This document shows positions 1-16,614 of a stretch of 16,614 bases of DNA, in pieces; position 1 is the first letter of the stretch, and every line of letters starts with the position of its first letter. The translations under genes and the position numbers were made by a program. Source of the stretch: a virus. Lineage: Duplodnaviria; Heunggongvirae; Uroviricota; Caudoviricetes. Location: IMG/VR virus record IMGVR_UViG_2778261297_000002; one strand, 5' to 3'. The notes under the pieces are model-generated. The model had not been told where the DNA came from, did not search any database, and saw nothing but the letters and a program-made list of their open reading frames with translations.

Positions 1-1227
1 ATGGCGGGCACTAACAAGCTAAGTGATAAAAAGCTCAAGGCACTCCAGGGGGCCAGCCGTGATGCGCCAGAAATGTATGCAGATGGTGAAGGTTTAAGCG
101 TCAGGGCATCAAAACAGGGTCAACTGAGTTGGGTATTCTCGTACCGGTTGGGTGGAAGGGGTAGCAAACTCGAACGTTTAACGCTTGGCCGTTACCCTGA
201 TTTGTCGCTAAAAGCTGCGAGAGAAAAGCGGGAAAAGTGTCGTCAGTGGCTGGCTGGTGGTCTTGATCCAAAAACAGAGCTTGAACTGAGCACCGAAGAA
301 ACGCTTAAACCTGTGACAGTACAGGATGCTCTCGAATACTGGCTGGTGAATTACGCCAGGAGAAAGCGCAGTGATGAGGAGCTGGTAAGGGCACAGCTAC
401 GCAAGCATATTTACCCGCGCCTTGGTCGTTATCCGCTCACCAGATGTGAAACCCGCCATTGGGTGGCCTGTTTTGATGAAATAAACCTGACCAAACCCAT
501 GACCGCCGGCCGCATGTTTCAGATTTCTAAACAGGCGTTACGTTTCTGCAAGGTTCGCCGCTATGCCGCCAGTGATGCTCTTGCCTTTCTTACCATTCAG
601 GATGTAGGCCAGCCATCCGGCCAACGTGACCGCGTATTGTCAGATAGCGAGCTGGCTGATGTGTGGCGCTCCACAGACAGCGATGATCAGCAGCCTTACT
701 ATTCACGTCTTCTCAAAATGCTAGTGCTGTTTGGTGCACGAACGATGGAGGTTCGCCTCTCTCGATGGTCAGAGTGGGATTTTTCCTCATGGATTTGGAC
801 AGTACCGAAAGAGCACAGCAAAACTCGCGAGAAAATAGTTAGATCGATACCTGAAGCAATACGTCCGTGGCTGGAAGAGTTAAAACGCGAGACAGGCAAA
901 ACGGGACTACTGCTGGGAGAAGATCGCACCCGTCAGGCTGTATCATTGAAAGGGCGCAGGCTTTATAAAGATTTCCACCATAACGAGCCTTGGACGCTTC
1001 ACGATCTGCGTCGCACGTTCTCCACGGGGTTAAACAATATGGGTATAGCACCACATATTGTAGAGCTGCTGCTGGGTCATGCCCTACCGGGCGTCATGGC
1101 TATTTATAACCGTAGCCTGTACTTGCCGGAGAAGCTCGATGCTCTGAACAAATGGTATGACCGCTTAGAACTTCTTGCGGGTAATCATCAAAATGTGGTT
1201 CTGTTATCTGTAACGAATAGAAATTAA
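1..1227 (+). CDS. int: Tyrosine recombinase / phage integrase (P4-type)
   Basis: 408-aa ORF with C-terminal tyrosine-recombinase signature (HDLRRTFSTG ... LLGH ... Y); TAA stop at 1225-1227; position at element edge. Confidence 0.9.
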   Translation: MAGTNKLSDKKLKALQGASRDAPEMYADGEGLSVRASKQGQLSWVFSYRLGGRGSKLERLTLGRYPDLSLKAAREKREKCRQWLAGGLDPKTELELSTEETLKPVTVQDALEYWLVNYARRKRSDEELVRAQLRKHIYPRLGRYPLTRCETRHWVACFDEINLTKPMTAGRMFQISKQALRFCKVRRYAASDALAFLTIQDVGQPSGQRDRVLSDSELADVWRSTDSDDQQPYYSRLLKMLVLFGARTMEVRLSRWSEWDFSSWIWTVPKEHSKTREKIVRSIPEAIRPWLEELKRETGKTGLLLGEDRTRQAVSLKGRRLYKDFHHNEPWTLHDLRRTFSTGLNNMGIAPHIVELLLGHALPGVMAIYNRSLYLPEKLDALNKWYDRLELLAGNHQNVVLLSVTNRN

Positions 1228-1319
1228 AATGATATTGCGGGTCTAGGTCGGCCAACCGAAAAGCGGGATACCCTACCCGTCTGGCCCGCAAATTATTTAG
1301 GGGCGTTGAGGGTGACGGT

Positions 1320-2144
1320 ATGGGTATGCCATTGCGTGAGTATTATCCTATAACTCGAGCGGCTAGTTTATTAGGATATGAAACGAATGATCTTTTACAC
1401 TGGGCCTCTATTGGTTCAATACGATTATTCATTAATTTCGACGTAACCAACATAACAAAAGGGTATGTTGTATTCACAGATGAAGGCCTTTCTTTGAGAA
1501 CGAAATTAATTGAAAAAGGTATCGTTTCTGATTGGTTTTCGAGGGTTTATAATTTAAAAAATATTAGGGATATTAACAGCCCAGACCCTAAAATAAATTA
1601 TGATGGAAGTGAGCTTATTTTAAAGGATGCATTGGAATGTGGGTTTAGTGGCTTTTGGCAACTACCTAAAACATTCTTTGGATTGACCGAGCTTTATGAT
1701 ATTCATCCTCAATTCTTCCAGGTGTGGATGTCAGTATCGAACAAGATGATAGTTAACTTTAATAGTGAGGAACCTATTGATTTTGATTTGGCTGATATTT
1801 ATCTCATGAAAAATGACTTTATCATGTTAAGAGATAGTAGAGATGGTGAGTCATTACCTAGTTTTTATAATGGCGGTGTATTACCTCCTGATACTGAAGT
1901 TTCAACAGTCGCGCTAAATCCAGGGAGGGCAGAACATCATGCAAAAAAGAGAGAGGAAGTATTAAAAGCTGCCATTTATATTAAAAACCACCACCCCGAA
2001 CTGTGTGATAATTATACTAACTGGGCTAATGCTATTAGTGACCATGCTCATAAATTTTGGCGCAGTGGTGAAGCACCCTTATCAATTAAAACGATTGCAG
2101 CATTAATTGGTGAGGCTCATAGGCTACCAACACCATCATCGTAA
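1320..2144 (+). CDS. Hypothetical protein, AT-rich cargo gene (274 aa), no recognisable motif
   Basis: Uninterrupted ORF with GAGG 8 nt upstream of ATG. Sampled lines are about one-third G+C versus about half in flanking genes. A hairpin terminator follows. Confidence 0.6.
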   Translation: MGMPLREYYPITRAASLLGYETNDLLHWASIGSIRLFINFDVTNITKGYVVFTDEGLSLRTKLIEKGIVSDWFSRVYNLKNIRDINSPDPKINYDGSELILKDALECGFSGFWQLPKTFFGLTELYDIHPQFFQVWMSVSNKMIVNFNSEEPIDFDLADIYLMKNDFIMLRDSRDGESLPSFYNGGVLPPDTEVSTVALNPGRAEHHAKKREEVLKAAIYIKNHHPELCDNYTNWANAISDHAHKFWRSGEAPLSIKTIAALIGEAHRLPTPSS

Positions 2145-2172
2145 GTAGGTTCCCGACTTAGCTTAATGTCTC

Positions 2173-2200
2173 CCCGAGTTATGCTAACTCGGGTTTCAAT
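2173..2200 (+). terminator. Putative rho-independent terminator after the AT-rich gene
   Basis: Inverted repeat CCCGAGTT-atgct-AACTCGGG followed by TTTCAAT. Confidence 0.4.
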
Positions 2201-2284
2201 ACCAAGAAATATGCATCAAGATTCTCCAAACAACGCCAGAACAGATAGGAGGTGTTCCTTCTGAGAGCGTTAACTGGAGGGTTT

Positions 2285-2569
2285 ATGCTAAATACTGTTT
2301 TCATCCCACCAACGGCTGAGCAGCGCCGCCAAATTCTTAGGGACTACGGATTTGAATATGACCGACGTATTCGTGAGGCCGAATGCTTGGAAATAACTAG
2401 TCTTTCCCGCTCTACCCGCTGGAATATGGAAAATGATAGTAAGTTTCCCACCCGCTGCCACTTTGGGCGTAACAGCTGCGCATGGCTCCTATCTGACATT
2501 CTTTGGTGGGTTCGTAATCCGCCTTCAGTGTTAAACGTAAATAACCCGCACAGCCGCAAGTCTGCATAA
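2285..2569 (+). CDS. alpA: AlpA-family phage transcriptional regulator / excision activator (HTH)
   Basis: Motif pattern ...LEITSLSRSTRWNMENDSKFP...W typical of AlpA-type regulators; GGAGG just upstream of ATG 2285. The six-frame ORF starts at GTG 2252, so the start is ambiguous. Confidence 0.7.
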   Translation: MLNTVFIPPTAEQRRQILRDYGFEYDRRIREAECLEITSLSRSTRWNMENDSKFPTRCHFGRNSCAWLLSDILWWVRNPPSVLNVNNPHSRKSA

Positions 2570-2685
2570 ACAGTTTAGATAAGATCATTACTGAGCATTT
2601 GTTGCGTGCTGTTGCGTTAGTTATACAGCAGTATTGCTAACGCTGTCGCGGCGGCTCTCAATGTGAATATATTGGAGCACTGAAA

Positions 2686-3498
2686 ATGGTATCGAAAAAA
2701 ATTACTACCTTAACTGGTAGCGGCCAAACTCAATCTGAAATCAGCCTAGAGGATATTTCTGGTAATAATTTTGCTGCGCGAATTCCTGTAACCCTGAGCA
2801 ATATCGGCGGGAAAGAAACTCAGTCTGTAAGCGGCCGTAAGCTGCATACGTTTCTGGCTGTAGGGCGTGACTTTACCAACTGGAGCAAAGGGCGCATCAA
2901 GCAGTACGGGTTCGTCGAAGGGATTGATTATATGATTGTCGAATATTTGACCTCGCCAAAACGGGCGAGCTCAAAATCTCGCCAGCGTATTGAGCATGAC
3001 TACATTGTCAGCCTGAATATGGCTAAAGAGCTTTCTATGGTTGAGCGCAACGCGCAAGGCAAGATGGCTCGTCAGTACTTCATCGACTGCGAAGAACGCC
3101 TGCGCCGGGTCGCCCCTGAAGAACATGAGGCGGCGTTGCTGACATGGCGTAAAAATCGTGTAGCAGCTTGCGAAGATCACAAAAGCATGGCCGAGGCGAT
3201 GAAGGGCTATATCGAACGCACTGGAGATAAGCAGCACGGCTTTGCCTACAGCAATGAATGCACCTTCCTCAATAGCCTTGCGCTGGGTATGCACCCGCGA
3301 GCATGGGCGAAACAGAAAGAAATTCCGGTAAAGCAGGTACGCGACCACATGAACACTGAACAACTGGCGCTGCTGGCCTATCTGGAAAGCCGTAACTGCG
3401 CTCTGCTGGATCTGGATACCAGTACGGCAACCCGCAAGACGAAACTCACTGAACTGGCGCAACGTTGGCTGGTTAAAAGAGTGGGAGGTACAGCATGA
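2686..3498 (+). CDS. Phage antirepressor, AntA/AntB-like
   Basis: 270 aa. N-terminal LHTFLAVGRDFTNWSKGRIKQYGFVEGIDY and central SLNMAKELSMVERNAQGKMARQYFIDCE resemble the AntA/AntB antirepressor family; GGAG 8 nt upstream of ATG. Confidence 0.7.
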   Translation: MVSKKITTLTGSGQTQSEISLEDISGNNFAARIPVTLSNIGGKETQSVSGRKLHTFLAVGRDFTNWSKGRIKQYGFVEGIDYMIVEYLTSPKRASSKSRQRIEHDYIVSLNMAKELSMVERNAQGKMARQYFIDCEERLRRVAPEEHEAALLTWRKNRVAACEDHKSMAEAMKGYIERTGDKQHGFAYSNECTFLNSLALGMHPRAWAKQKEIPVKQVRDHMNTEQLALLAYLESRNCALLDLDTSTATRKTKLTELAQRWLVKRVGGTA

Positions 3499-3802
3499 TC
3501 GCGGATAAAACAAAGGCAGCTTTGCAGAGCTGCCTATGTCACTACGAAAAACCGAAACAGATTAAGCATACTAGGGTTAATGCTGATGGTCAAAACTTCA
3601 CCCAACTCAATTTTGAGGGCGCTGATTTTATTGGTTTTTTTAGCCAGCGCAATTCTGCGCCCACTGATTTTACTCAGCTTTTATGGCAGAGCCCAAAAGT
3701 GAGCTTTGCGTATAACTCATTGATTCCCGCATTCTTCCTCACTTTTGGGAAAAAGGGCGGGAAATCAAACCCTACCCTGTGCTTTCTGTTTCTTCAGTCT
3801 GA

Positions 3803-3916
3803 TTACCGTGTTAGCCAAATAAGGGCTTTAACAATCCAGTATGTGGAATACGCAGTTGCAACTAAAAAAACAATAGCGATTGCGTCTCGCCATTTACCCC
3901 GTTCCGTATCAGGCAT
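3803..3916 (-). CDS. Small hydrophobic peptide (37 aa, one predicted TM helix); kil/toxin-like candidate
   Basis: Hand translation of minus strand: MPDTERGKWRDAIAIVFLVATAYSTYWIVKALIWLTR. GAGGA 7 nt upstream; start lies 3 nt after the preceding stop. Below the ORF-track length cut-off. Confidence 0.35.
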   Translation of the reverse strand: MPDTERGKWRDAIAIVFLVATAYSTYWIVKALIWLTR

Positions 3917-3919
3917 AAA

Positions 3920-4057
3920 TCATTCCTCTGGATCTGCCTTAGCTTTTTTGCGCTGGTCTTCCTTGAGCTTTTTGAGAAATGATTCCAGCGGGAATTGCAT
4001 TGACTTAGCTTTTGGTTCTGCTTCGACGGGTTGCGAATTCTTCTGCTCTTTTGTCAT
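3920..4057 (-). CDS. Small lysine-rich protein (45 aa), unknown function
   Basis: Hand translation: MTKEQKNSQPVEAEPKAKSMQFPLESFLKKLKEDQRKKAKADPEE. AAGGG 7 nt upstream; start 3 nt after the stop of the upstream ORF. Confidence 0.35.
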   Translation of the reverse strand: MTKEQKNSQPVEAEPKAKSMQFPLESFLKKLKEDQRKKAKADPEE

Positions 4058-4060
4058 GTG

Positions 4061-4240
4061 TCAGCCCTTAGGCTCAATGCCGCGCTGCTGTAGTTCTTTG
4101 CGGATGATGCGCTTGATCCAAGCAGCCAGTGATTCGTCGCCATCCTGTTGTTGTGCTTGTTCCATTAGCTCACGTAGCTCGGGATCTAATCTGAACTGGA
4201 ATGGAGGATTACCACGTCTTTCATTTTTGTGTGTTGACAC
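4061..4240 (-). CDS. Ribbon-helix-helix (Arc/CopG-like) DNA-binding protein, candidate repressor
   Basis: Hand translation: (V)STHKNERRGNPPFQFRLDPELRELMEQAQQQDGDESLAAWIKRIIRKELQQRGIEPKG, a beta-strand then two helices as in RHH regulators. Start uncertain (GTG 4240 or internal ATG 4165); several rare codons. Confidence 0.45.
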   Translation of the reverse strand: MSTHKNERRGNPPFQFRLDPELRELMEQAQQQDGDESLAAWIKRIIRKELQQRGIEPKG

Positions 4241-4288
4241 GTTAATTACACCCGATGTAATGTGTTTATGTGTAATGACACATTACAT
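4231..4288. promoter_or_regulatory. Divergent promoter/operator region between the RHH gene and the primase operon
   Basis: TTGACA (4233-4238) with TAATGT about 18 bp downstream on the plus strand. TGTAATGTGT (4256-4265) and the inverted repeat TGTAATG-aca-CATTACA (4271-4287). Confidence 0.45.
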
Positions 4289-4370
4289 ACAAGAAAGACA
4301 AATAGCAACGCCCCGGAGTGCGGGAACACTACCGAGGCGTCTAACCAAACCGTTATACGAGGTAACAGTT

Positions 4371-4640
4371 ATGGCTGGATCACAGCATACCCAAACTCGC
4401 CCGGAATTTACATGGTTATTCCTGGCAACCCCCGATCACACTCCTGAATGCACACCAGTAGTGCTTCGCTTTGATGCTGATACGGAAGATAAAGCCCGCG
4501 CTGCTTTTCCCGGCTGGGATTTAGTTTTTGCCGCCAAAATCCGTGCTCAGGCTCCTTGCCGCGTTGCCTTCTTCGATTACACCACCCGCCGTGGCTGGGA
4601 GTTCGACAGTGCCGCGATTCAGGAGGTGCGTCATGCGTAA
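4371..4640 (+). CDS. Icd-like / Ash-family small phage protein (89 aa)
   Basis: MAGSQHTQTRPEFTWLFLATPDHTPEC...FPGWDLVFAAKIRAQAPCRVAFFDYT...VRHA resembles Icd-like proteins of P4-type islands (from memory, not searched). ACGAGG upstream; first gene of the coupled operon. Confidence 0.55.
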   Translation: MAGSQHTQTRPEFTWLFLATPDHTPECTPVVLRFDADTEDKARAAFPGWDLVFAAKIRAQAPCRVAFFDYTTRRGWEFDSAAIQEVRHA

Positions 4641-4821
4641 GGTCAAATGGTCGGAAATTAACATTGAAGATGAACTGCGCCGCCTGGAAGCGTTGCTCTC
4701 AACATCGCTGTATATGAATTTTGATGATGAAACCGAGTACAGCGTTGCGATGGATCTGATCAGCATGTCGTTGTCCCGCGTTCGTGAACTAAAAGCGGCA
4801 AGTGAGGTGACCCATGCGTGA
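4633..4821 (+). CDS. Small hypothetical protein (62 aa)
   Basis: ATG 4633 overlaps the upstream stop (4638-4640); AGGAGG at 4621-4626. Confidence 0.5.
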   Translation: MRKVKWSEINIEDELRRLEALLSTSLYMNFDDETEYSVAMDLISMSLSRVRELKAASEVTHA

Positions 4822-5128
4822 TATTTACCATCAGCTTGTTAAGAGCACTCCTGATTTTAAAAACTTCACTAATGAGGCTTTGGCTGAATCCAGCGATTTA
4901 TATTCTGCTGGCGCATTTGCCATCAATAGTGCGCTCACACTGATCGGCAATCTGGCGTTTGATGCAACCAATGCAGAGGACTATTCCGATGAAGATGCCC
5001 GGCGTGATTTGATCCTTGTAAGCCATGCATTGCGTCACCTTCCCAGAATGGCGCAAGCACTCAATCAGAGTAGTGATGCTGCGGATTATGTGCGTACCCA
5101 GCGTAATAACGCGGGGGAGCAATCATGA
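4814..5128 (+). CDS. Hypothetical protein (104 aa)
   Basis: ATG 4814 overlaps the upstream stop (4819-4821); same-strand coupled operon. Confidence 0.55.
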   Translation: MRDIYHQLVKSTPDFKNFTNEALAESSDLYSAGAFAINSALTLIGNLAFDATNAEDYSDEDARRDLILVSHALRHLPRMAQALNQSSDAADYVRTQRNNAGEQS

Positions 5129-5493
5129 TCAGTCTCTTGAAATTTAACGAGCTGGAAAACCGTGTCGATTTGCTGGTTAACCGCGTCCTGGAGTTAGAAC
5201 AGCAGGTGCGCACACTCACCGAAAGCCAGGGGGGAGATATTCCTCCCGGTATGGCTCAGGTCGCCACGCTGGCGGCTGAGTTCGGCATATCGACGAAAAA
5301 AGCCGAAGAGCTGGCAAAAAACACGGGCGTGATGCTGGTCAGAATGAAAGCTGGTGGCTTTATCGCGCCGGATAACAAGTTCAGAGAGGTGGCGAGGCAG
5401 GTTCTGCGCAGCGCGAAGCGCAAATATGGATCGGCGTACTGGTATCACCCATTACTTGGCAAATTTCAGATGAGCGGAGGTATCCCGCAATGA
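5125..5493 (+). CDS. Hypothetical protein (122 aa), coiled-coil-like N-terminus
   Basis: ATGA start/stop overlap with the upstream gene at 5125-5128. Confidence 0.6.
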   Translation: MISLLKFNELENRVDLLVNRVLELEQQVRTLTESQGGDIPPGMAQVATLAAEFGISTKKAEELAKNTGVMLVRMKAGGFIAPDNKFREVARQVLRSAKRKYGSAYWYHPLLGKFQMSGGIPQ

Positions 5494-5855
5494 CCGATAT
5501 TTTTGAAGTGATAGGCCCATTGTTCCGCAAACTGACCGAAACCTGTATTGCTCACCAGATAGCGGAAACCGGTTCGGCAACCTTGCTGGTGGAAAGCGAT
5601 AAGTATATGGCCCGCTATCGCTTCACGCTGGAGCCGCGCGTAACTGAAAACGTATTGATGAAATATATGATTTTTGGCTGCTTTGAAGAATTCGGGCGCG
5701 ATGAGGGGTTAAGGCGTTTGCGGGATATTCTGCTGACCTGCTTTACCGACGATGGCGATATTAACGAAATGGGGTTGCAGATAGTGAAAAGCTGCCACCT
5801 TGAATACCTGCATGAAGATTTGGAAGCGGATCTTTCCAATAAGGTGCTGCACTGA
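5490..5855 (+). CDS. Hypothetical protein (121 aa)
   Basis: ATGA overlap at 5490-5493; GGAGG at 5476-5480. Confidence 0.6.
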   Translation: MTDIFEVIGPLFRKLTETCIAHQIAETGSATLLVESDKYMARYRFTLEPRVTENVLMKYMIFGCFEEFGRDEGLRRLRDILLTCFTDDGDINEMGLQIVKSCHLEYLHEDLEADLSNKVLH

Positions 5856-7987: not shown

Positions 7988-8007
7988 TTACACGTGAGGT
8001 TTATTTT

Positions 8008-8296
8008 GTTGGTTCAGTTGGTTCAGTAGGTAGTGTGTATCGTTATCGTGGTGTTTATATTGATTATTTTACACAGAAACTGAACCAACACTGAACCAAC
8101 AAATGACTGTTTTGAACCAACAAACGGGGGATTTGAACCAACATACCTACCCTGCCCGAATAAGTGTTTTTACTGAACCAACATAAAAACGGCGTTGTTG
8201 GTTCAAAACGGGGCTTTGTTGGTTCACTAAATAAAAATAAGTCTTTTAAAAACAATGTTCTTTACAAATTGAACCAACTGAACCAACTGAACCAAC
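8008..8296. repeat. Replication-origin-like iteron array
   Basis: 12 copies of the 9-mer TGAACCAAC: 8 forward (8081, 8092, 8113, 8134, 8174, 8270, 8279, 8288) and 4 inverted (8008, 8017, 8198, 8218), with an AT-rich stretch at about 8227-8269. Confidence 0.8.
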
Positions 8297-8333: not shown

Positions 8334-8555
8334 ATGTTGGATGCCGGAATGATTGAGAAGAAATCAGCAGGAAGTGCATCGTTGTGGATGCGTGAGGCTG
8401 TGGAGGAAATAGATAAACAATTTGGCGTTGGCTATGCCAGCAACAACCCTGAGCTGGTGGCAGGGTTCATGCAGGCAGCAGCCATTGATCAGGCGGGGAT
8501 GTATATCCGGTCGCTGGTGGAAACGCTGGATTTATGGCCCGGTTCGCTGGCTTAA
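8334..8555 (+). CDS. Small hypothetical protein (73 aa)
   Basis: GAGG 6 nt upstream of ATG; directly downstream of the iteron array. Confidence 0.5.
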   Translation: MLDAGMIEKKSAGSASLWMREAVEEIDKQFGVGYASNNPELVAGFMQAAAIDQAGMYIRSLVETLDLWPGSLA

Positions 8556-8600
8556 AGCTGAGAGTAAGCCAAAAAACAACATAATTGATGGAGGTAATTT

Positions 8601-8795
8601 ATGGCCTTTAACGATTTTATGGAAGAATCGGAATTGTTTGAGCTACTGGGCAAGAAAAAAACGGCTGTATGGCGGTTACGAAAAGACCATGGTTTTCCGA
8701 ATCCTGTTCTTACCTACCCGTCGCGCTACAGCCGCAAAGCTGTAATGAAATGGCTTGAGGATGGTGGTATTAACCGTACGGTTTGTGGTTATTGA
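8601..8795 (+). CDS. Second AlpA-like HTH regulator (64 aa)
   Basis: FELLGKKKTAVWRLRKDHGFPNPV...SRYSRKAVMKWLEDGG matches the AlpA-type pattern; GGAGG 6 nt upstream; terminator follows. Confidence 0.65.
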   Translation: MAFNDFMEESELFELLGKKKTAVWRLRKDHGFPNPVLTYPSRYSRKAVMKWLEDGGINRTVCGY

Positions 8796-8811
8796 ACCTG
8801 AATTTATCTGG

Positions 8812-8839
8812 CTGCACTCTTTTGGGTGCAGTTATTTTC
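8812..8839 (+). terminator. Rho-independent terminator
   Basis: CTGCAC-tcttttgg-GTGCAG followed by TTATTTT. Confidence 0.6.
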
Positions 8840-9500
8840 CTGTCAGGTAGGGATGGATGTTGATCATTACCTGTAATCATTATTCTCCGGCATACCGTTC
8901 GCCTCTTCGCGTAAAGCTGCCAGTCCGTTAGACTCCTCGCCTTTCTGACCAGTTAGAAAAATCCTAGTGGTTAACATCTGTTGAATAAAACAGCAAAAAG
9001 GAGTTCACACCTTACGCACTATACAGTGCTACGCCCAAAGCCGCGTTAACGCTGGCTTTCTGGGGTATACACCCCTTGTGCATAAATAGTGAAACTTGTA
9101 TACAAAAATGAGGAAAATCAGCCTGCAAGGCGTACCAGATAAGGGATTTCTGTGTATACAGGTCAGCTAGTTAATAGGCCATTATTGAGCTGAGCACGGC
9201 AAGGCTGTATCGCAGGGCAGCTACACGCTGGCAGGAAGTCATGATGATTTGTGCTGAGGACGATGATCGGGAATGGGTAAAGCAGCGCCGTGAAACGTGT
9301 CTGGAGAACGTGAAGCGCCCGCCAGTGAAAACCGATGATTACGGCGATCTGCATAAAGCAGTCACTGAGACACAACACCGCATGGGGATAGCGCAACCAA
9401 ACGGCAATGCCTTCCGATTAAATGGTGGTAAGAAGCAACGACAGGCCACCAGCGGGGGCGACAGTTCGCAGTAAGGTTCGCACTAAAACGGCTGTAAATT

Positions 9501-9558
9501 CTGGACTGTCCTGGACGGATTTAAAACCCTAGCAGCGCCAGACCCGCGCCAGTAGTGG
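9501..9558. repeat. Conserved bipartite element, copy 1
   Basis: Arms CTGGACTGTCCTGGAC and AGACCCGCGCCAGTAGTGG, start positions 39 bp apart; near-identical copy at 10094-10151. Confidence 0.6.
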
Positions 9559-9686
9559 GCTGGAAGCTAAATCGTGATTCAGGACGTCCTAAATATCTGG
9601 TTAGTTCCACTGGTACGCAGTACGCAGTCAGGTGCGCAGCAAAACCGCGCATTCAGTTAGGGTTTTTGCGCACAGTGAGCCGTTAA

Positions 9687-10064
9687 ATGAAAAAAAATAG
9701 CCAACAATCAAGATCCGGATGGGGTGGCAAGCGGAAAGGCGCAGGCGCACCGTTGGGCAATACTAATGCCGTCAAACATGGCGAACGCAGTAGGCGGGCA
9801 TTCTTCCCGTTTGAGGGGGGCGAGGCGCTTTCTCCGCTGGTGCGAAATCGTGCAAGAAACCTCATGATGGCTGAGAGATACGGGCTATTACTGGCGACTA
9901 ATCCGACGCCGGGAACAGAAGAATGGCGCGAGATGACATTGATTAACGGACTCATGGGGCTACATGCCGACAGAATCGCACGGCTTGAGCTGAGTTTAGC
10001 GAGATCCGTTTCAATGCAAGCAAGGCGGGATCTGCGAAGGGTTAAAAAAAGCGGCGCATGTTAG
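9687..10064 (+). CDS. Basic N-terminus protein, possible terminase small subunit-like / packaging protein (125 aa)
   Basis: N-terminal GWGGKRKGAGAPLGNTNAVKHG Gly/Lys-rich motif reminiscent of some phage TerS N-termini; function unverified. Confidence 0.4.
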   Translation: MKKNSQQSRSGWGGKRKGAGAPLGNTNAVKHGERSRRAFFPFEGGEALSPLVRNRARNLMMAERYGLLLATNPTPGTEEWREMTLINGLMGLHADRIARLELSLARSVSMQARRDLRRVKKSGAC

Positions 10065-10093
10065 CAATCCGTATAGTCACCGATGTTGAAATA

Positions 10094-10151
10094 CTGGACT
10101 GTTCAGGACAGAACCAAAGCCCATATGAGGCGAGACCCGCACCAGTAGTGG
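10094..10151. repeat. Conserved bipartite element, copy 2
   Basis: Arms CTGGACTGTTCAGGAC and AGACCCGCACCAGTAGTGG with the same 39-bp register as copy 1. Confidence 0.6.
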
Positions 10152-10450
10152 ACAGAATCACGGGCGTGATTGAGCGTAAGACGGGGAAAGCAGCCAGAGG
10201 CATTGGCCTGACTCTGTAAAAGCAAAACGCCCGCACGGGCGTCAGGGAACGGGATAGACTTCTGCGACAATTTGCATTCGCCGCCAATATAGCAAGCCGT
10301 CCACATCAAGCAATAAACTATCACCGGGAGGGGGAGGCCAAATCTCTGCAACCCTGAGCCTTAAGGACTGCCCGCCTCATCGAATGTTTATACCCGCGAA
10401 AAATAAAATTTAATCTGGGCGTGTTTCATCCTTCCAGATGGGTATGACGT

Positions 10451-10636
10451 ATGACACCACGCGAAATAGCTTTATTGACCACCGCCAAACTGGAGCACGA
10501 AGGCCACCAGCTAACCCCGGCAGATCAACGGGAGATAGAACGCTCAGTTAATGCCGATATAGCCCGGCGTGACAAATTCCGCGAAATGATGCGATCACCT
10601 GCCTACCAGTGGAAGAAGCCAGCGCCGCGCAGGTAG
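10451..10636 (+). CDS. Small protein (61 aa), paralog of 14520-14711
   Basis: C-terminus MMRSPAYQWKKPAPRR parallels MTAPAYQWKRPDNPRR in the second copy, with similarity across the whole length; weak RBS. Confidence 0.45.
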   Translation: MTPREIALLTTAKLEHEGHQLTPADQREIERSVNADIARRDKFREMMRSPAYQWKKPAPRR

Positions 10637-10756
10637 ATATGGGATTATTCCACATGTAACTTATGCGTATTAAGCAAATTTCCTTTATTCACCTTTACAG
10701 AATTGTGAGTACGTCAGTATCGTTATCCTTCCGATTCGCATTTATTCAGGATTTGC

Positions 10757-11299
10757 ATGTACCAGCTAAAGATAACCATCCGAGACAGCAAGCCACCTAT
10801 ATGGCGGCGTGTGCTGGTTCCAGAGCAAATCCCCTTTAGTGAACTTCACGCGGTGATCCAGTTGGCTTTTGGCTGGAATGACGAACACCTGTATATGTTC
10901 GAGAAAGGGCGTAAAGGTGATCCCGGTAGCGAGTATCGCGTATGGGGTGAGGATGAAAGCATGGGTAATGCGGCAATCACACCACTATGGGCAGCGCTCC
11001 AGAATGAGGGTGACAGGCTGGTTTACACGTATGACTTTGGCGACTGGTGGGATTGCCTTATTGTGCTGGAGAAGCAAACACACGATACGAGCAATCAGCC
11101 CATTAGCTGCCTGCGTGGGAAAGGCACCACCCCGGCGGAAAACTCAGGCGGCTTGCATGGTTACAATGAATTGCTATTACAGGCCAGAGAGTCTGATAAT
11201 CCTGAGCAGGCCGAGATCCACAATTTCCTGATGCTGGATATTGAACGCCGGGTTTACGACCTGAGCCGCATCAACGACAGATTGCAGGCTATTAACTGA
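10757..11299 (+). CDS. pRiA4b ORF-3-like family protein (180 aa)
   Basis: YQLKITIRDSKPPIWRRVLVP...ELHAVIQLAFGWNDEHLYMF...YTYDFGDWWDCLIVLE matches the conserved pattern of that family (recognised from memory). Confidence 0.65.
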   Translation: MYQLKITIRDSKPPIWRRVLVPEQIPFSELHAVIQLAFGWNDEHLYMFEKGRKGDPGSEYRVWGEDESMGNAAITPLWAALQNEGDRLVYTYDFGDWWDCLIVLEKQTHDTSNQPISCLRGKGTTPAENSGGLHGYNELLLQARESDNPEQAEIHNFLMLDIERRVYDLSRINDRLQAIN

Positions 11300-11651
11300 C
11301 CCGCATGTATTCACCTGATATTGCGTTATCAGCGCCGCCACTATCTCGCACAACGGCACACTGTCCCGGTAAACCGTAGCGCACGACCGTTGCGCTGGTT
11401 TCACCGCCGCGCCGTACCTGACGGGATTCATACACTGTCATTCGCTCAAGCAGTCCACCGGCAACCATGCTTTCGAGCGTGCGGCTGGTTGATTCGAGCT
11501 GGTATCGTTTATCGAACGATCCCATGCCGTGAAGCAGGTAGGCCACGCCCGACACATCGAGTGGCGGAGCGCCGATCTCACCCGATACCCACTCGAGGTT
11601 ATCCGGCTCAAAGTAACTGAGTATCTCTTTTTTGCGGTTGGTCATTCTCAT
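11292..11651 (-). CDS. Winged-helix-like DNA-binding regulator, copy A (119 aa)
   Basis: ILSYFEPDNLEWVSGEIGAPPLDVSGVAYLL suggests a MarR/PadR-like wHTH; AAGGAA upstream; palindromic operator just upstream; paralog at 14708-15067. Confidence 0.65.
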   Translation of the reverse strand: MRMTNRKKEILSYFEPDNLEWVSGEIGAPPLDVSGVAYLLHGMGSFDKRYQLESTSRTLESMVAGGLLERMTVYESRQVRRGGETSATVVRYGLPGQCAVVRDSGGADNAISGEYMRVS

Positions 11652-11666
11652 GGCTGGCAGGTTCCT

Positions 11667-11696
11667 TATTGTGGGATAGCACTATCATACAATAAG
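11667..11696. promoter_or_regulatory. Imperfect 30-bp palindrome, putative operator of regulator A
   Basis: TTATTGTggGATAGcaCTATCatACAATAA, between regulator A and the divergent 11877 operon. Confidence 0.4.
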
Positions 11697-11876
11697 AAGC
11701 GGTGAGGAATGGCTACTTAACTTTCCCCTCCATTTTGTAACGCAATCAGTACCCCCTCATGTAGTCCGCAACTCTTTTAATTAAAATATTTTATCTTGAC
11801 GATTTATTTTATTGATCATAAGTTAACCCCATACAGAAGAAGTATGTACGTTTAACCAGTATCAGGAGGTCAGGAA

Positions 11877-12053
11877 ATGGCAGTCACTAACAAAAAGCCG
11901 ATTCTTGTTGATCAGCCGATTCTCGAAGGGTTACAGCGCCTCCGGGATGATGAATGCCGACGTTCTACCGTAGGCGCAGCCCCAAGCATTCAGGAGCTGG
12001 CGCGTCACCTTTTGCGCCAGGGTATCCACCGGCATGAGGCGGGCAAGAAGTAA
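11877..12053 (+). CDS. Small protein (58 aa), possible RHH-like regulator; first gene of four-gene operon
   Basis: AGGAGG at 11864-11869. Sequence MAVTNKKPILVDQPILEGLQRLRDDECRRSTVGAAPSIQELARHLLRQGIHRHEAGKK has a strand-helix-helix pattern. TTGACG-type promoter candidate at about 11796-11825. Confidence 0.45.
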   Translation: MAVTNKKPILVDQPILEGLQRLRDDECRRSTVGAAPSIQELARHLLRQGIHRHEAGKK

Positions 12054-12079
12054 CTCTGCTGCCCGGAAAGGAGAAACCA

Positions 12080-12856
12080 ATGCCGTTAATGAAATTACCC
12101 ACATGGGCGCTAACAGCGTTCGGTACGAAAGGTAAGAAAAAACAGCCCCAACTATCTGAGGAAAACCCATCCATGTTTGATTTCTCGCATCTGTCAGGCA
12201 AAACCAAAACGAAAGGCGAGTCCGATAACGGTAATGAGCCACTGAAACAGGATAGTGACGATATTCAGGTATATCGCCCAAACAAGCACAGTCGTGGTCA
12301 CAATGTCGCGGTGTCTACTGAGGCTAAGAACAACCCGGTTCTGGCTGTTCGTTTGCTGAAAGAAACAAAGCTTTCATCGAAGAAAATAAAGCAGCAACTG
12401 GCATCGTCGCCGATGGCGCTTTCTGTGTTTACCCAGAAATTTATGGAAGAGAACGATCCGACCTGGGAGTTTCAGGACGACGAAGAGAAAGCCCGAACGG
12501 CGCTGATGTTTTCAACGCAGAACCGTGACGCAAATGGTTACAGCGCTGCCCAGAGTAGCGCTATCAAGGCATTGAAAAAAATGGAAGAGCCTCTGACAGA
12601 GGATGAGGTCAAGGCATTAGCCAACATGACATTGAAGATGCAAAACGAGTACGACCCGATGTCACCTGACAATGTCAATGCTCGCCGCATAGCGGATGAG
12701 GAGTACCGGGAGGAAGTGGCACAGGCCACAGCACGCCGCAATGATCGTATCCGGGCATCTGGTGTGAGCCTGCCGGGAGATACCCGTCGCGTGAATGGCA
12801 AGATTGAAGGGCCAGCAGGCGAAGCCGAACGCCTTAAATCACAGGTTTCTCTCTGA
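12080..12856 (+). CDS. Hypothetical protein (258 aa), paralog of 12865-13359
   Basis: AAGGAG 7 nt upstream. Shares EAKNNPVLAVRLL and DPTWEF...DANGYSAAQSSAIKALKKMEEPLTEDEV with the downstream gene. Confidence 0.7.
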   Translation: MPLMKLPTWALTAFGTKGKKKQPQLSEENPSMFDFSHLSGKTKTKGESDNGNEPLKQDSDDIQVYRPNKHSRGHNVAVSTEAKNNPVLAVRLLKETKLSSKKIKQQLASSPMALSVFTQKFMEENDPTWEFQDDEEKARTALMFSTQNRDANGYSAAQSSAIKALKKMEEPLTEDEVKALANMTLKMQNEYDPMSPDNVNARRIADEEYREEVAQATARRNDRIRASGVSLPGDTRRVNGKIEGPAGEAERLKSQVSL

Positions 12857-12864
12857 GAGGTGCG

Positions 12865-13359
12865 GTGGTGAGCATTATGAACTTTCAGCATCTCAATCCG
12901 CCGCAGCCCGATGCGCAGGCATATGGCTTTTCCGGGCGCCGTATGCAGCGCATGCATCGACTTCAGCAGTCTGTTGAAGACGAGCAACCCCCTGAACGTC
13001 GCCATTCTGATGCACATCTGATCGCGGTGAGAAAAGAGGCCAAACAAAACCCGATACAGGCACTTCATCTTATCGCTGAAGGGATACCACACCAGCGTGC
13101 CATCGCCTTACTGCAGGGCAGCGTTCGGCAGCTCAGTCGTTTTACCCGTCGGGCCATGGAGAAAGCCTATCCTGGCTGGGAACTCCTTGATGCCGAAGAC
13201 CAGAACATGGCGGCATTCCAGCACAGCATGATTAACGGCGACACCAACGGCTATCGGGCTGGTTTTAACGCTGCTCTGTCGGCGCTGGAGAAGTTTGTAG
13301 AGCCAGTTACGTTTGACGATATCGTGAATAGCGTTAATTCGCTGGTGGAGGAAGTATGA
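12865..13359 (+). CDS. Hypothetical protein (about 160 aa), paralog of 12080-12856
   Basis: EAKQNPIQALHLI and YPGWEL...DTNGYRAGFNAALSALEKFVEPVTFDDI parallel the upstream gene. Start ambiguous (GTG 12865, GTG 12868 or ATG 12877). Confidence 0.65.
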   Translation: MVSIMNFQHLNPPQPDAQAYGFSGRRMQRMHRLQQSVEDEQPPERRHSDAHLIAVRKEAKQNPIQALHLIAEGIPHQRAIALLQGSVRQLSRFTRRAMEKAYPGWELLDAEDQNMAAFQHSMINGDTNGYRAGFNAALSALEKFVEPVTFDDIVNSVNSLVEEV

Positions 13360-13535
13360 GTAATTCATTCGATTTTGAGCTGGTTGCTGATGACAGGGCC
13401 AGTGCTGCCATTGACGACATTAATGAGGCTATTCGCAATCTTGGACCGCATCTGGAGAAGACGCGGGAAAGCCTCAGGCTGGGCGGCCTTCCGCCGTCGC
13501 CTTACAAAAATGGGTCCTTCCTGAGCCTTTTGTAA
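13356..13535 (+). CDS. Small acidic protein (59 aa), last gene of operon
   Basis: ATGA overlap with the upstream stop at 13356-13359; hand translation MSNSFDFELVADDRASAAIDDINEAIRNLGPHLEKTRESLRLGGLPPSPYKNGSFLSLL. Confidence 0.4.
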   Translation: MSNSFDFELVADDRASAAIDDINEAIRNLGPHLEKTRESLRLGGLPPSPYKNGSFLSLL

Positions 13536-13586
13536 GGCACGGGCATTGCGCGCCGCGGTGTTTTCCTAGCTACAGGTTTTGAATTT

Positions 13587-13792
13587 GATTGACACTTTAC
13601 ACTAAGGTTTTTCCGGTTGCTGGGTTGTTAACTCCCTTGAGCGGCAAGGGATTACCGGGAATAACCGCCGATCCTGATTGACAGTTAGATTGACACTTTC
13701 TGCCTGAAAAGTGTCAACCGGACAGAAAAAGTGTCAAGTAGCTGGCGCTTTACAGTTTGATTGACAGTTTCCCGCCGGTGGGTTGACACATT
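13587..13792. repeat. Array of 7 TTGACA(C/G) motifs in both orientations upstream of the 13826 gene
   Basis: Forward copies at 13589, 13678, 13690, 13761, 13783; inverted at 13711 and 13731. Includes the palindrome TTGACACTTT-ctgcctg-AAAGTGTCAA. Confidence 0.6.
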
Positions 13793-13825
13793 GCCTGCCA
13801 ATGATAATTACCCAGGAGAAAAAAT

Positions 13826-14413
13826 ATGTCGCTGATGAGTGTGAGTCAGTACGCTAAACACGCAGGGCTAAGTCGTCAGGCCCTCTACAACTGGGAGGCT
13901 AAGCAAGGTTTCCCCGCACGAGTGGACGGCAAGATTGACCAACTGGCCTGTGATGCCTACCTGGCCCGATACCGCAGCGCCAGTGACCCGCGCACGAAGA
14001 ATGCCAGGGGGAAAACCAAATCTGCTCCAGCCGGTCAGGCGCAGGGGAGTGCGCTGGTGGAAATGAGTGTTGCGGAGATTAAGCGCATCATAGTGTCAGG
14101 TGCCGGTAAGGTGGCCGGGATGGATCCGGACGAACGAGCCCAACTGGCTGCAAAGGCCGTAGAGCTGTTTGTAAGCGAAGGGCCTTATAACCCTCCTGTA
14201 ACGTTCGGCGGCTACCGGCTGTCGATTGTTGAAACGCCAGATGTTGAAATCGGGCAGATCATCGCGGGCGGCGCGTTCGGCCTGTCTGCATATGATGTGA
14301 TTTACGAGTGCCGGGATTACACCCTGACTCTCATGAGCGATGAAACCGAAGAAACAGCCATGCGGAGAGTGATCCCTTCGTTGCTGTATGCCCTGGCCGA
14401 CGATACCGACTAA
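13826..14413 (+). CDS. HTH-containing protein (195 aa), N-terminal MerR/Nu1-like helix-turn-helix
   Basis: N-terminus SVSQYAKHAGLSRQALYNWEAKQGFP looks like a phage HTH; AGGAG 7 nt upstream; strong terminator downstream. Confidence 0.65.
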   Translation: MSLMSVSQYAKHAGLSRQALYNWEAKQGFPARVDGKIDQLACDAYLARYRSASDPRTKNARGKTKSAPAGQAQGSALVEMSVAEIKRIIVSGAGKVAGMDPDERAQLAAKAVELFVSEGPYNPPVTFGGYRLSIVETPDVEIGQIIAGGAFGLSAYDVIYECRDYTLTLMSDETEETAMRRVIPSLLYALADDTD

Positions 14414-14443
14414 AGCAAAGTGTGCCAGCGGGCTCCTGTTATT

Positions 14444-14469
14444 CCAGCCCTCCGGGGCTGGCTTTTTAT
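14444..14469 (+). terminator. Rho-independent terminator
   Basis: CCAGCCC-tccg-GGGCTGG followed by CTTTTTAT. Confidence 0.65.
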
Positions 14470-14519
14470 AACGATGCTCAGGGCGTAGCCGGTGAGCCTA
14501 TAGAGCAGGAAGATATAGC

Positions 14520-14711
14520 GTGTTAAAACAGAAGAAAATCGAGGCGGTAATTGAAGAGCTGGCCCGCCTGCAGGGGAATGAGCTGAATGCCACCGATATG
14601 CTGGAGTTACGTTGCAGGGTTGCGGGAACGCTCGTTGCTAAAGAACGGCACCGCCGGAGGATGACGGCACCAGCCTACCAGTGGAAGAGGCCAGATAATC
14701 CACGTCGTTAA
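14520..14711 (+). CDS. Small protein (63 aa), paralog of 10451-10636
   Basis: GTG start with AGGA 8 nt upstream; shares the C-terminal PAYQWK(K/R)P...PRR motif; stop overlaps the convergent regulator B. Confidence 0.45.
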   Translation: MLKQKKIEAVIEELARLQGNELNATDMLELRCRVAGTLVAKERHRRRMTAPAYQWKRPDNPRR

Positions 14712-15067
14712 ACGACCCGCACATATTCGCCTTCTATCGTGCCGTCTGCACCTCCCGTATCGCGTACCACTGAAACGGTACCCGGCAGGCCGTAACGGAC
14801 AACGGTAGCGGTCGTCTCGCCGCCCATAACGATACTCCGCGCCTCCCTGCTCCGGTACCTCTCCAGCAACCCATCTTTCACCATTGCTTCCAGCGTTCGT
14901 CTGGTGGATTCGAGCCAGTGCCGGTTGTCTTCGAGGCCTGTCCCATACAGCAGGTACGCCACGCCGGATACATCAAGGGGAGGTGCGCCGATCTCACCCG
15001 TCACCCAGTCGCGGTTATCCGGTTCGAAGTAGCTGAGTATCGTCTTTTTGCGGCTGGTTAGTCTCAT
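14708..15067 (-). CDS. Winged-helix-like DNA-binding regulator, copy B (119 aa from ATG 15067)
   Basis: MRLTSRKKTILSYFEPDNRDWVTGEIGAPPLDVSGVAYLL aligns along its length with copy A; AAGGA upstream of ATG 15067 (the six-frame ORF extends to 15103). Confidence 0.65.
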   Translation of the reverse strand: MRLTSRKKTILSYFEPDNRDWVTGEIGAPPLDVSGVAYLLYGTGLEDNRHWLESTRRTLEAMVKDGLLERYRSREARSIVMGGETTATVVRYGLPGTVSVVRDTGGADGTIEGEYVRVV

Positions 15068-15080
15068 AGTGGGAGATTCC

Positions 15081-15106
15081 TTATTGTATGACAGTGCTAT
15101 CATACA
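15081..15106. promoter_or_regulatory. Palindromic putative operator of regulator B
   Basis: TTATTGTATGAcagtgcTATCATACA with arms TGTATGA / TCATACA; same position relative to the start as operator A. Confidence 0.4.
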
Positions 15107-15320
15107 TTAGTAATTCATGACAATCCGCCGTCATGGCTGGTGGTCACAGTCATGATAAATGTGCTCAGCCCATTCCCGGTTGAGTATGGGGGACGCATTC
15201 AACATCGAGGCATTTATAACTAATTGATGGTTATGTTTATGGAATTTGATGTTTTATAGCAGTAGGATGAAATCGCATAGACTATGCACAGCTATTACTC
15301 TGGATATACAAGGAATTTAT

Positions 15321-15860
15321 ATGTCATTAGCTAACAAAATGAAACTACAAGATCTTAAAGCAAAAATTGAAGAATTCAGCGCTCCTCGGCGCGAGTTGTT
15401 GAATAAACAAATAAATGATGCTGCTACTGCTATTCAGAAAGATGTTTTGGAATTTTTTAAATCTAAAGGATTTACAATTACAGGCCAGACTCCTAAGTTG
15501 AAAGCCACTTATAACGGCGGCCTTGATACTCTCATTGATTTCTCAAAACTCACAGGAAGCTTCTTTGGTTGTGATGGTGCAGTTGAGTTCAAATATGAAA
15601 ATAAAGAATTTTCGCTTAATTACTCTATAAAACGTGGAAAGTCCCCGGAGCGTAATTCTTGGGCTGGTAGGCCTGATGAAATGCTACTAAAAGAAATTGA
15701 GTTCTATGAGAAAGAATTATTGCCGTATTTAGAGTCAACTGGTGTTTCAGACCTAAGCGGCGAGGTGGTTTTGTTCTCAATGGTTAAAAACGCAACAGGT
15801 AAACCAACTACGCAGAAGTATGAAAGTGTTGAGCAAGCACTGAACAGCCTCATGGATTAA
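15321..15860 (+). CDS. Hypothetical protein (179 aa), AT-rich cargo gene at the right edge
   Basis: AGGAA 5 nt upstream of ATG 15321 (ORF track extends to 15246); sampled lines about 27-38 percent G+C; terminator follows. Confidence 0.6.
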   Translation: MSLANKMKLQDLKAKIEEFSAPRRELLNKQINDAATAIQKDVLEFFKSKGFTITGQTPKLKATYNGGLDTLIDFSKLTGSFFGCDGAVEFKYENKEFSLNYSIKRGKSPERNSWAGRPDEMLLKEIEFYEKELLPYLESTGVSDLSGEVVLFSMVKNATGKPTTQKYESVEQALNSLMD

Positions 15861-15868
15861 ATGTCTGC

Positions 15869-15905
15869 ACCATGCCTGCAATCGTAAGCAGGCATGGTAT
15901 TCATT
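15869..15905 (+). terminator. Hairpin terminator / possible element boundary
   Basis: ACCATGCCTGC-aatcgtaa-GCAGGCATGGT followed by ATTCATT. Confidence 0.5.
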
Positions 15906-16077
15906 ACCCCTACAATATTTCCTTGCTATAATCCCCAGCTCTTTGGAATGTGCTCATGCTTATGCGTGATTTCGGCTCTGTGCGATAATCCGTATATCAA
16001 TCGGTGTATCAATATTTACTGAATTGCATAGTGTGAGATTGAATTTAACTGATTAAAATCAGTGAGATATATAGATT

Positions 16078-16614
16078 ATGAAACATATTGTAGAAGTAAT
16101 GATCCCCGAAGCGGAGATTAAAGCGCGTATCGCCGAACTGGGTCGTCAGATTACTGAGCGTTACAAAGACAGCGGCAGCGATATGGTGCTGGTGGGTCTG
16201 CTGCGTGGCTCATTTATGTTTATGGCGGACCTGTGCCGTGAAGTTCAGGTATCTCATGAAGTCGACTTTATGACCGCCTCCAGCTACGGTAGCGGCATGT
16301 CCACCACCCGTGATGTGAAAATCCTCAAAGATCTGGATGAAGATATCCGTGGCAAGGACGTGCTGATTGTTGAAGATATCATCGACTCGGGGAATACACT
16401 GTCGAAAGTGCGTGAGATCTTAAGCCTGCGCGAACCGAAGTCGTTGGCGATTTGTACGCTGCTGGATAAACCGTCCCGTCGTGAAGTGAACGTCCCGGTT
16501 GAATTTATCGGTTTCTCGATCCCGGATGAGTTTGTGGTGGGTTACGGCATTGATTACGCACAGCGTTACCGTCATCTGCCGTATATCGGCAAAGTGATTC
16601 TGCTGGACGAGTAA
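16078..16614 (+). CDS. hpt: Hypoxanthine phosphoribosyltransferase
   Basis: 178 aa, near-identical by recall to enterobacterial Hpt ([32 protein letters not shown] ... [18 protein letters not shown]-binding motif); normal composition. Confidence 0.95.

Follow-up and report, generated by a model that had tools for sequence, protein, structure and literature searches.

The IMG/VR record IMGVR_UViG_2778261297_000002, a stretch of 16,614 nucleotides assigned to the Caudoviricetes (referred to as the window), was found to be 100% identical to positions 711886-728499, reverse strand, of the chromosome of Escherichia coli EC09 (NZ_CM169492.1). In K-12, gcd and hpt are adjacent with 205 bp between them; in EC09, an island is located between speE-yacC-cueO-gcd and hpt-can-yadG. 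Starting from the end distal to hpt, the window carries genes for a tyrosine integrase, an AlpA-family regulator, an AntA/Bro-type antirepressor and a DUF927 primase, then an iteron array and a late region of mostly hypothetical genes that extends to hpt (Table 1). As described below, this is a genuine and precisely bounded satellite island of the phage-inducible chromosomal island (PICI) type, belonging to a published subfamily that inserts into hpt.

The boundaries were obtained from a three-way alignment of the K-12 empty site with both EC09 junctions, using a 28.6-kb locus (L001) that contains the window with its 6-kb flank (window coordinate = L001 minus 6000). The insert has a size of 16,275 bp and is bounded by the 20-bp direct repeat TATGAAACATAYTGTAGAAG, the two copies of which are identical at 19 of 20 positions and 16,275 bp apart (repeat family D12). 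At the left junction, EC09 equals K-12 through GGTTAGAGATATGAAACATACTGTAGAAG, which ends with TGTAGAAG, and diverges beyond; at the right junction, the sequences are divergent up to TATGAAACATATTGTAGAAG, K-12-like thereafter and equal to K-12 from TATGAAAC. The left attachment (att) site, attL, is located at L001 5802-5821, 179-198 bp before window base 1 and 179 bp from the integrase gene at this island end. The window thus holds less than the whole island, as attL and the 179-bp P' arm (L001 5802-6000), which form the left end, lie outside.

The original prediction, made from the window alone, had proposed a whole satellite island inserted upstream of hpt. It was right in outline, as a real and site-specifically integrated island is present; besides its reading of a terS-like gene (see below), it erred on the completeness of the window and on the position relative to hpt. 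The alignment places the insertion inside the 5' end of the hpt coding sequence, within its first 19 nucleotides, the att core spanning the ATG and the next five codons. The locus is a non-tRNA site adjoining hpt with int at the far end, as had been suggested, and no tRNA gene was found in the window. Aligning the flank with an island-free relative, as the prediction had advised, yielded the att repeat, and empty sites are the norm in related genomes: the site is uninterrupted in 5354 of 5426 (98.7%) complete E. coli genomes and split in about 63-71, whereas the integrase with its P' arm (at least 80% coverage) was detected in 19 of the 5426.

Four other islands at hpt were inspected, namely the capsid-forming PICIs of D8 and QL57EC, the BREX (bacteriophage exclusion) island of LR-29-1 and the capsid-less relative of VG1046-3E9; their integrases are 94-98% identical to that of EC09. 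In all five islands, the two att copies differ at core position 12, with C in attL and T in attR. When a query carrying the T was compared with uninterrupted E. coli sites, the best matches were all 98.4% identical, which indicates that these sites carry C and none carries T. With C in attB, C kept in attL and T in attR, strand exchange should occur 3' of core position 12, most probably within TGTAGAAG (16089-16096), the length of which fits the usual 7-8 bp overlap of tyrosine recombinases.

The motif GTRTATCAAT occurs four times in the 28.6-kb locus compared to 0.08 copies expected, and exclusively as two tandem pairs, one in each att arm. Since the integrase possesses an Arm-DNA-bind_3 domain, these are putative arm-type binding sites, and integrase binding is the simplest reading of the pairs. 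The arms are conserved in the five islands regardless of cargo, with a mean column identity of 93% in the P' arm alignment and a conserved P arm of ~165 bp. A doubled motif, TGTATTGC, has been reported as confined to helper-embedded PICIs and absent from other PICIs (Mageeney et al., PMC10111431); the hpt islands show an analogous doubled layout with a different sequence.

As a copy of the hpt start is part of attP, hpt is left intact after integration. The encoded protein, WP_000680691.1, is identical in all five island-bearing genomes inspected. The native sequence between gcd and hpt is retained in full at attL together with hpt codons 1-6, and there the fusion of the native hpt start to island DNA generates a 19-codon open reading frame (ORF), MKHTVEAKNFMFSCFYMIS (L001 5803-5862), reading toward int. 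The native hpt promoter may likewise read toward int, and in the integrated state host hpt transcription may thus extend into int. At the other end, the island replaces the ribosome-binding site and first codons of hpt and supposedly also its promoter, for which an extended -10-like element is the candidate. Consequently, hpt expression, and hence purine salvage and thiopurine sensitivity, may fall under island control. That a housekeeping gene is entered at the 5' end of its coding part, with replacement of the ribosome-binding site, the first codons and supposedly the promoter, is one element of the mechanistic, if modest, added value of the present analysis, along with the helper prediction and the module swapping described below.

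Table 1. Features of the window and of the adjoining left end of the island. Positions refer to the window unless L001 is given; L numbers denote loci.
Feature	Position	Strand	Evidence and remarks
Partner doubled arm-type repeat GTGTATCAAT-cg-GTGTATCAAT	L001 5950-5971, outside window	co-oriented with P-arm pair	P' arm
P4-type tyrosine integrase with arm-binding N-terminal domain	1-1227	+	Pfam Arm-DNA-bind_3, Phage_int_M, Phage_integrase
int-alpA RNA motif, Rfam RF02996	1236-1303	+	cmscan 60.8 bits (gathering score 35.8), E 1e-10, full-length
274-aa hypothetical gene in int-alpA accessory slot, G+C 0.35	1320-2144	+	No Pfam, PHROG, PADLOC or NCBIfam match
AlpA-family regulator/excisionase	2285-2569	+	PF05930 E 2e-10; phrog_2790 E 6e-37
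AntA/Bro-network antirepressor-type protein ('Bro zone')	2686-3498	+	PF08346 E 9e-24; phrog_5817 E 1e-38
Two small genes: 45-aa ORF and YlcI/YnfO Arc-like 59-aa protein	3920-4240	-	RefSeq annotation; phrog_228 'Arc-like repressor' E 3e-6
Icd-like gene, then four small conserved satellite/phage ORFs up to primase gene	4371-5855	+	NF033153 E 1e-17; phrog_1743, 7465, 6805, 6610, 7417, E 5e-41 to 1e-83
DUF927 primase/helicase (pri-rep), 710 aa	5855-7987	+	PF06048 E 6e-49; phrog_1139 'DNA primase' E 2e-177
Replication-origin-like iteron array, 12 x GAACCAAC, both orientations, AT-rich	8008-8296		Directly downstream of primase gene
73-aa gene and 64-aa helix-turn-helix (HTH) protein gene, then terminator-like hairpin (8809-8834)	8334-8834	+	phrog_1231, phrog_33798; 11-bp stem and T run
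PerC-family transcriptional activator	9181-9474	+	PF06069 E 5e-24
125-aa ORF just upstream of cos	9687-10064	+	NF040601 18.9 bits (cut-off 120); phrog_1889 E 0.004 over 20 residues
cos-like site, phiP27/ST64B/SfV type, 88 bp	10326-10413	+	Sole segment found by blastn of 8800-16077
61-aa protein, paralogue of 63-aa protein 14520-14711	10451-10636	+	phrog_7271
PRiA4_ORF3-family protein, cargo	10757-11299	+	PF07929 E 2e-42
119-aa conserved protein, divergent from late operon	11292-11651	-	Paralogue at 14708-15067; 467 homologues, all annotated hypothetical
Conserved late operon: 58-aa, 258-aa (12080-12856), 160-aa (12877-13359) and 59-aa (13356-13535) proteins	11877-13535	+	Synteny in L005, L009, L014-L022
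Six TTGACASTT repeats, both orientations, candidate binding sites	13589-13769		Upstream of 195-aa gene
195-aa protein (13826-14413) and terminator-like hairpin (14444-14461)	13826-14461	+	N-terminal winged helix, unmatched C-terminal domain
63-aa protein (14520-14711, +) and second 119-aa paralogue (14708-15067, -), convergent	14520-15067		phrog_7271 for 63-aa family
179-aa hypothetical cargo gene, right end, low G+C	15321-15860	+	phrog_14564 E 5e-22; 99% identical in VG1046-3E9
Strong hairpin	15869-15898	+	Fold energy -22.1 kcal/mol, z -4.6
Extended -10-like element TGCTATAAT, candidate island-borne hpt promoter	15924-15932	+	-10-like element at same position in all five islands
Doubled arm-type repeat GTATATCAAT-cg-GTGTATCAAT	15992-16013	+	P arm; conserved in all five islands
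attR core TATGAAACATATTGTAGAAG	16077-16096	+	Overlaps hpt ATG (16078) and codons 2-6; K-12 alignment, repeat family D12, PMC10111431 supplement
hpt, intact, 178 aa, Thr4Ile, island-derived 5' end	16078-16614	+	99.4% identical to K-12 Hpt

The integration, regulation and replication genes are arranged in an order that fits three zones known from Gram-negative PICIs, namely those of integration, Bro and replication. alpA follows int in the same orientation; the accessory slot between them is occupied in relatives by DUF6387 or other genes, and the RF02996 match starts right after the int stop codon. The small ORFs preceding the primase gene strongly match PHROGs of unknown function. Downstream of the primase gene, the 12 copies of GAACCAAC within 290 bp compare with 0.35 expected, and none of 200 shuffled sequences reached 12. 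The hairpin at 8809-8834 appears to end the early/replication operon. An Rfam scan with E values up to 0.1 detected the int-alpA motif only and no C4, IsrK or P4 CI-type immunity RNA.

Positions 8800-16077 were compared by sensitive blastn with 50,697 phage records. The only segment obtained matches, at 77-90% identity, the site annotated as cos in phiP27 and one genome end each of SfV, SfII and SfIV (left) and ST64B (right); in phages of the SfV/ST64B/phiP27 type it is located between the HNH endonuclease gene and terS. In the alignment, the island sequence TGCCCGCCTC (10369-10378) stands opposite CGCCCGCCCC, the annotated cos of phiP27, with conservation on either side. As a cos signal is present in the island but the enzymes are missing, the most parsimonious scenario is that the terminase of a helper resembling SfV, ST64B or phiP27 packages it. 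To judge from this similarity, the helper is presumably of that type, which represents a concrete and testable prediction. A 101-bp query with the cos-like segment detected it in 1617 of the 5426 E. coli genomes and at two places in the EC09 chromosome; the second EC09 copy may belong to a resident helper prophage, with which it is compatible. Other cos types were also considered. The P2/P4 cos 19-mer was absent even with three mismatches allowed, and a lambda-type cosN (GGGCGGCGACCT, up to two mismatches) gave one match, which is chance level.

The two capsid-forming hpt PICIs each hold two cos-like sequences (L003 27110-27233 and 32439-32713; L004 33410-33492 and 30762-30882), of which one is divergent and situated between the HNH and terS genes of the PICI itself, the other phage-like and similar to the cos of EC09, ST64B and SfV. 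This pair recalls cos1 and cos2 of EcCICFT073.

With Pfam and PHROG, no capsid, portal, protease, terminase, holin or lysin gene was recognized among the ORFs of the window, and the sole trace of a tail gene is a 59-aa tape-measure N-terminal fragment. This ORF (phrog_2276, E 1e-9) represents the N-terminal part of a 600-aa protein, intact in the relative L020 (7864-9666), in which a tape-measure-like N-terminal region is combined with an SLT transglycosylase domain. As only the N-terminus is matched, the tape-measure/SLT gene of EC09 is a remnant. In the same module of L020, a tail-fibre-assembly-like gene is located ~1.3 kb upstream, before the homologue of the 258-aa gene.

The original prediction had closed its backbone order with a terS-like gene. 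Whereas int, alpA, the AntA/Bro antirepressor, the DUF927 primase and the 12-iteron origin were confirmed in this order, the gene in question, probably that of the 195-aa protein, is a member of no TerS family and resembles TerS in its N-terminal HTH only. A TerS PHROG was matched over HTH residues 1-73 (E 2e-9), and no Pfam terminase family was detected; Terminase_4, by contrast, is matched by TerS of SfV, of phiP27 and of a capsid-forming PICI. Comparison with PDB sequences gave no match at E values up to 10, no Rpp sequence homologue was identified, and BLASTP of both the 195-aa and the 125-aa protein against SfV TerS yielded nothing. These findings identify a winged-helix protein rather than a demonstrated TerS or Rpp; judged from its sequence, it is a DNA-binding protein with a fold as in TerS, Rpp (RppC), Xis and MerR. 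The Rpp (redirecting phage packaging) proteins RppA, RppB and RppC combine a TerS-like winged HTH with a dimerisation domain and bind the TerS of the helper. Its 119 detected homologues, spread over the Enterobacterales, are all annotated hypothetical. In the region upstream of its gene, TTGACASTT is present in six copies compared to 0.20 expected, a number reached by none of 200 shuffles.

For the 125-aa ORF, likeness to TerS is limited to a GNxNAxKHG-type motif as it occurs in some TerS proteins. This ORF is unannotated in the EC09 RefSeq record, leaving a gap of ~1 kb without genes, and strain 2022CK-00450 has an annotated copy with 98% identity. The two 119-aa paralogues, candidate regulators, are ~70% identical, and the 5' leaders of their genes are ~80% alike; a structure model of the 119-aa protein (pLDDT 50) was too poor to interpret. 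The 258-aa and 160-aa proteins are paralogues as well, and the 61/63-aa family also follows terL in capsid-forming PICIs. Searches of the hypothetical genes with PADLOC and NCBIfam revealed no defence system and sub-threshold matches only.

The late block, consisting of PerC, the 125-aa ORF, cos, the 61-aa protein, PRiA4_ORF3, the 119-aa protein (minus strand) and the 58-, 258-, 160-, 59-, 195- and 63-aa proteins, recurs elsewhere. In an island located between yicC and dinD, most of its proteins are 92-100% identical (61-aa protein 75%, PerC 87%, 63-aa protein 89%), even though the integrase of that island is only 26% identical and its primase is different. The block is partly present in VG1046-3E9 at hpt, and nine IMG/VR elements with 58-72% identical homologues of the 195-aa protein keep the order 58-258-160-(tape-measure-like)-195-63-119 (minus strand). 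In a megablast search of the same 50,697 phage records, matches were restricted to the first ~8.3 kb, from the int 3' end to the origin, and no phage matched the late region.

The islands of D8 and QL57EC carry capsid, protease, portal, connector, HNH, TerS-P27 and TerL genes. That of LR-29-1 (L006 19180-33583) contains a BREX-type cluster with brxC, a truncated pglX, a WYL protein and IS fragments, and lacks alpA and primase. As the same integrase and att arms carry this cluster, the hpt int/att chassis is not restricted to satellites; one chassis with capsid-forming PICIs, capsid-less satellites and a BREX island illustrates clearly how satellites and defence islands swap modules.

Mageeney et al. 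(2023, NAR Genom Bioinform, PMC10111431) described 49 PICIs that reside in hpt and recognized them as a new subfamily. Neither the locus nor the family is thus new, and the novelty of the EC09 island is low. Its attL and attR match supplement files 5 and 6 of that study, including the att identity block TATGAAACATA, and it shares with the published elements, for example Eco10586.16.hpt, the target gene, this block, the C/T difference, the P' arm and the four-zone layout (integration, Bro, replication, late). That paper provides maps and att blocks only; the present analysis adds the type of cos, the arm repeats, the effect of the insertion on hpt and, for this particular island, the late module without capsid genes. 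The structural PICI features of Fillol-Salom et al. (PMC6092414) were also found, that is, int at one end, alpA, primase and iterons, att repeats, a cos site and the absence of tail, holin and lysis genes; the size of 16,275 bp agrees with the ~10-16 kb of such elements. Together, the att repeat, the empty sites and the int-alpA-primase-iteron order support the Gram-negative PICI-type island that had been proposed.

EcCICFT073, for which AlpA-dependent induction and cos packaging have been described (PMC6092414, PMC6739421), resembles the EC09 island in the int-alpA-primase-origin order, in the lack of its own terS, in a cos similar to that of the presumed helper and in a small late-region winged-helix protein with a TerS-like fold. 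It differs by a lambda/phi80-type cosN, RppA, capsid/decoration homologues and another att site, whereas the EC09 island has no Rpp sequence homologue and no capsid-like gene. The capsid-forming PICIs of D8 and QL57EC share with EC09 not only the integrase (94-98%) but also the attP arms, the Hpt Thr4Ile exchange, an alpA of ~75% identity, the 61/63-aa family and the phage-like cos sequence; they carry their own genes from capsid to TerL, which EC09 lacks, and EC09 has another late module. The P4-type arm-binding integrase, the AlpA/Vis-like regulator, the primase-helicase with iteron origin and the predicted cos packaging by a helper recall satellite P4, which integrates at a tRNA-Leu gene. 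In contrast to P4, no psu, delta or sid homologues (PHROG and Pfam), P2/P4 cos or CI/C4-type RNA were detected in the EC09 island.

Based on these data, we consider it probable that the 16,275-bp island is a PICI-type satellite of the published hpt subfamily with the following mode of integration and life cycle. The P4-type integrase, probably positioned by the doubled GTGTATCAAT arm-type sites on both arms, would recombine attP with an attB spanning the hpt start codon and first codons, strand exchange likely taking place in TGTAGAAG. Integration would leave hpt intact with an island-derived 5' region and Thr4Ile, and the native promoter with six codons at attL would face int. By analogy with EcCICFT073, a helper phage would switch on alpA, and the island would excise and subsequently replicate from the DUF927 primase/helicase and the iteron origin. 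As the island encodes neither capsid nor portal nor terminase, it would require the packaging machinery of the helper; concatemers would be cut and packaged at the island cos by the HNH, TerS (P27-family) and TerL proteins of an SfV/ST64B/phiP27-like phage. The late module (58-, 258- and 160-aa proteins, tape-measure remnant, 195- and 63-aa proteins and the divergent 119-aa protein) probably serves in regulation or in interference with the helper.

Several observations weigh against this proposed satellite life cycle. Of the five PICI components of de Sousa et al. (2023, PMC10085698), only int, alpA and primase are present; for the capsid-morphogenesis and TerS components, no capsid-related Pfam or PHROG match and no TerS homologue was detected in the window, and elements with int, alpA and primase only are treated by these authors as ambiguous ('Type C'). 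Two of the ten annotated bases of the phiP27 cos differ in the island. Furthermore, the 16.3-kb monomer is less than half the size of the 37-43 kb genomes of the proposed helpers, so that multimers or small capsids would be needed. attP-junction patterns were found in none of the viral, genome or metagenome collections. A consensus promoter scan did not call the TGCTATAAT element, and for this reason we only infer that hpt is transcribed from the island. Finally, the tape-measure/SLT gene is cut to 59 aa, so the element may be partly decayed.

If decay had gone further, the island would be a satellite that kept int/att, regulation and replication but has a broken hijacking module, is no longer mobilisable and persists as a fixed cargo island. 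In favour of this are the reduction of the 600-aa gene of relatives, several pseudogenes in the same region of VG1046-3E9, an ISKpn26 insertion in 1368KP, the lack of any terS, capsid-morphogenesis or rpp homologue and the rarity of the island, the integrase being present in 19 of 5426 genomes. However, the int, alpA and primase ORFs, both att cores, the arm repeats, the iterons and cos are all intact, and the 195-aa and 119-aa families are conserved at full length across the Enterobacterales. In addition, the same truncated arrangement, with 92-100% identity for most genes, is found behind an unrelated integrase at another locus, which argues for recent mobility or exchange. We therefore regard a decayed, immobile state as unlikely. 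That the element is a generic integrative cargo or defence island, which just uses the PICI integrase and att chassis and has no phage-dependent life cycle, might be suggested by the BREX cluster on the same integrase and arms in LR-29-1, without alpA or primase, by the many hypothetical genes and by PerC and PRiA4_ORF3, which look like cargo. Nevertheless, this appears highly unlikely given a phage-type cos, alpA, Bro-type and Icd-like genes and a primase with iterons in satellite-typical order, as well as the absence of a PADLOC-detected defence system. A defective prophage would account for the integrase, antirepressor, primase, cos and tape-measure fragment, but hardly for a compact 16.3-kb element with precise att repeats and an organisation conserved over several genomes and loci that has no capsid, portal, terminase, tail, holin or lysin genes and matches phages by megablast in its first ~8.3 kb only, the late region being unmatched; its probability is negligible.

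The preferred interpretation, a PICI-type satellite of the hpt subfamily, represents a well-supported but largely ordinary find, as site and island family were published in 2023. New are the type of the cos site, the doubled arm-type repeats flanking both att cores and the late module conserved in other satellites. Residual interest therefore concerns the replacement of the hpt 5' end, the predicted helper type and the uncharacterised conserved late module. It is conceivable, though we think it rather doubtful, that the capsid-less islands at hpt and yicC-dinD form an undescribed satellite lineage, the late module of which, including the TTGACASTT repeats next to the gene of the 195-aa protein, is a new hijacking system directed against SfV/ST64B/phiP27-type helpers. 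The module might then act as a TerS mimic on the P27-family terminase or by interfering with tail assembly, and the system would be distinct from those of Rpp-type and capsid-forming PICIs.

Three paralogous gene pairs are present in the island, 10451-10636/14520-14711, 11292-11651/14708-15067 and 12080-12856/12877-13359 (repeat families D1, D4 and D7). A 381-aa ORF at 3495-4640 (plus strand), the longest in its stretch, is almost certainly spurious; it overlaps the two small minus-strand genes and the Icd-like gene, and its translation is of low complexity and rich in Cys and Ser. The single metagenome match to an attP pattern proved to be the attL of another enterobacterial species, in which the native hpt leader resembles the pattern. 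On this contig (L013; OIEP01000017.1, 3401-4820), a 94% identical integrase with the same attL core and arm repeats is located beside a diverged gcd-hpt intergenic region, demonstrating that hpt islands also occur in another enterobacterial species.

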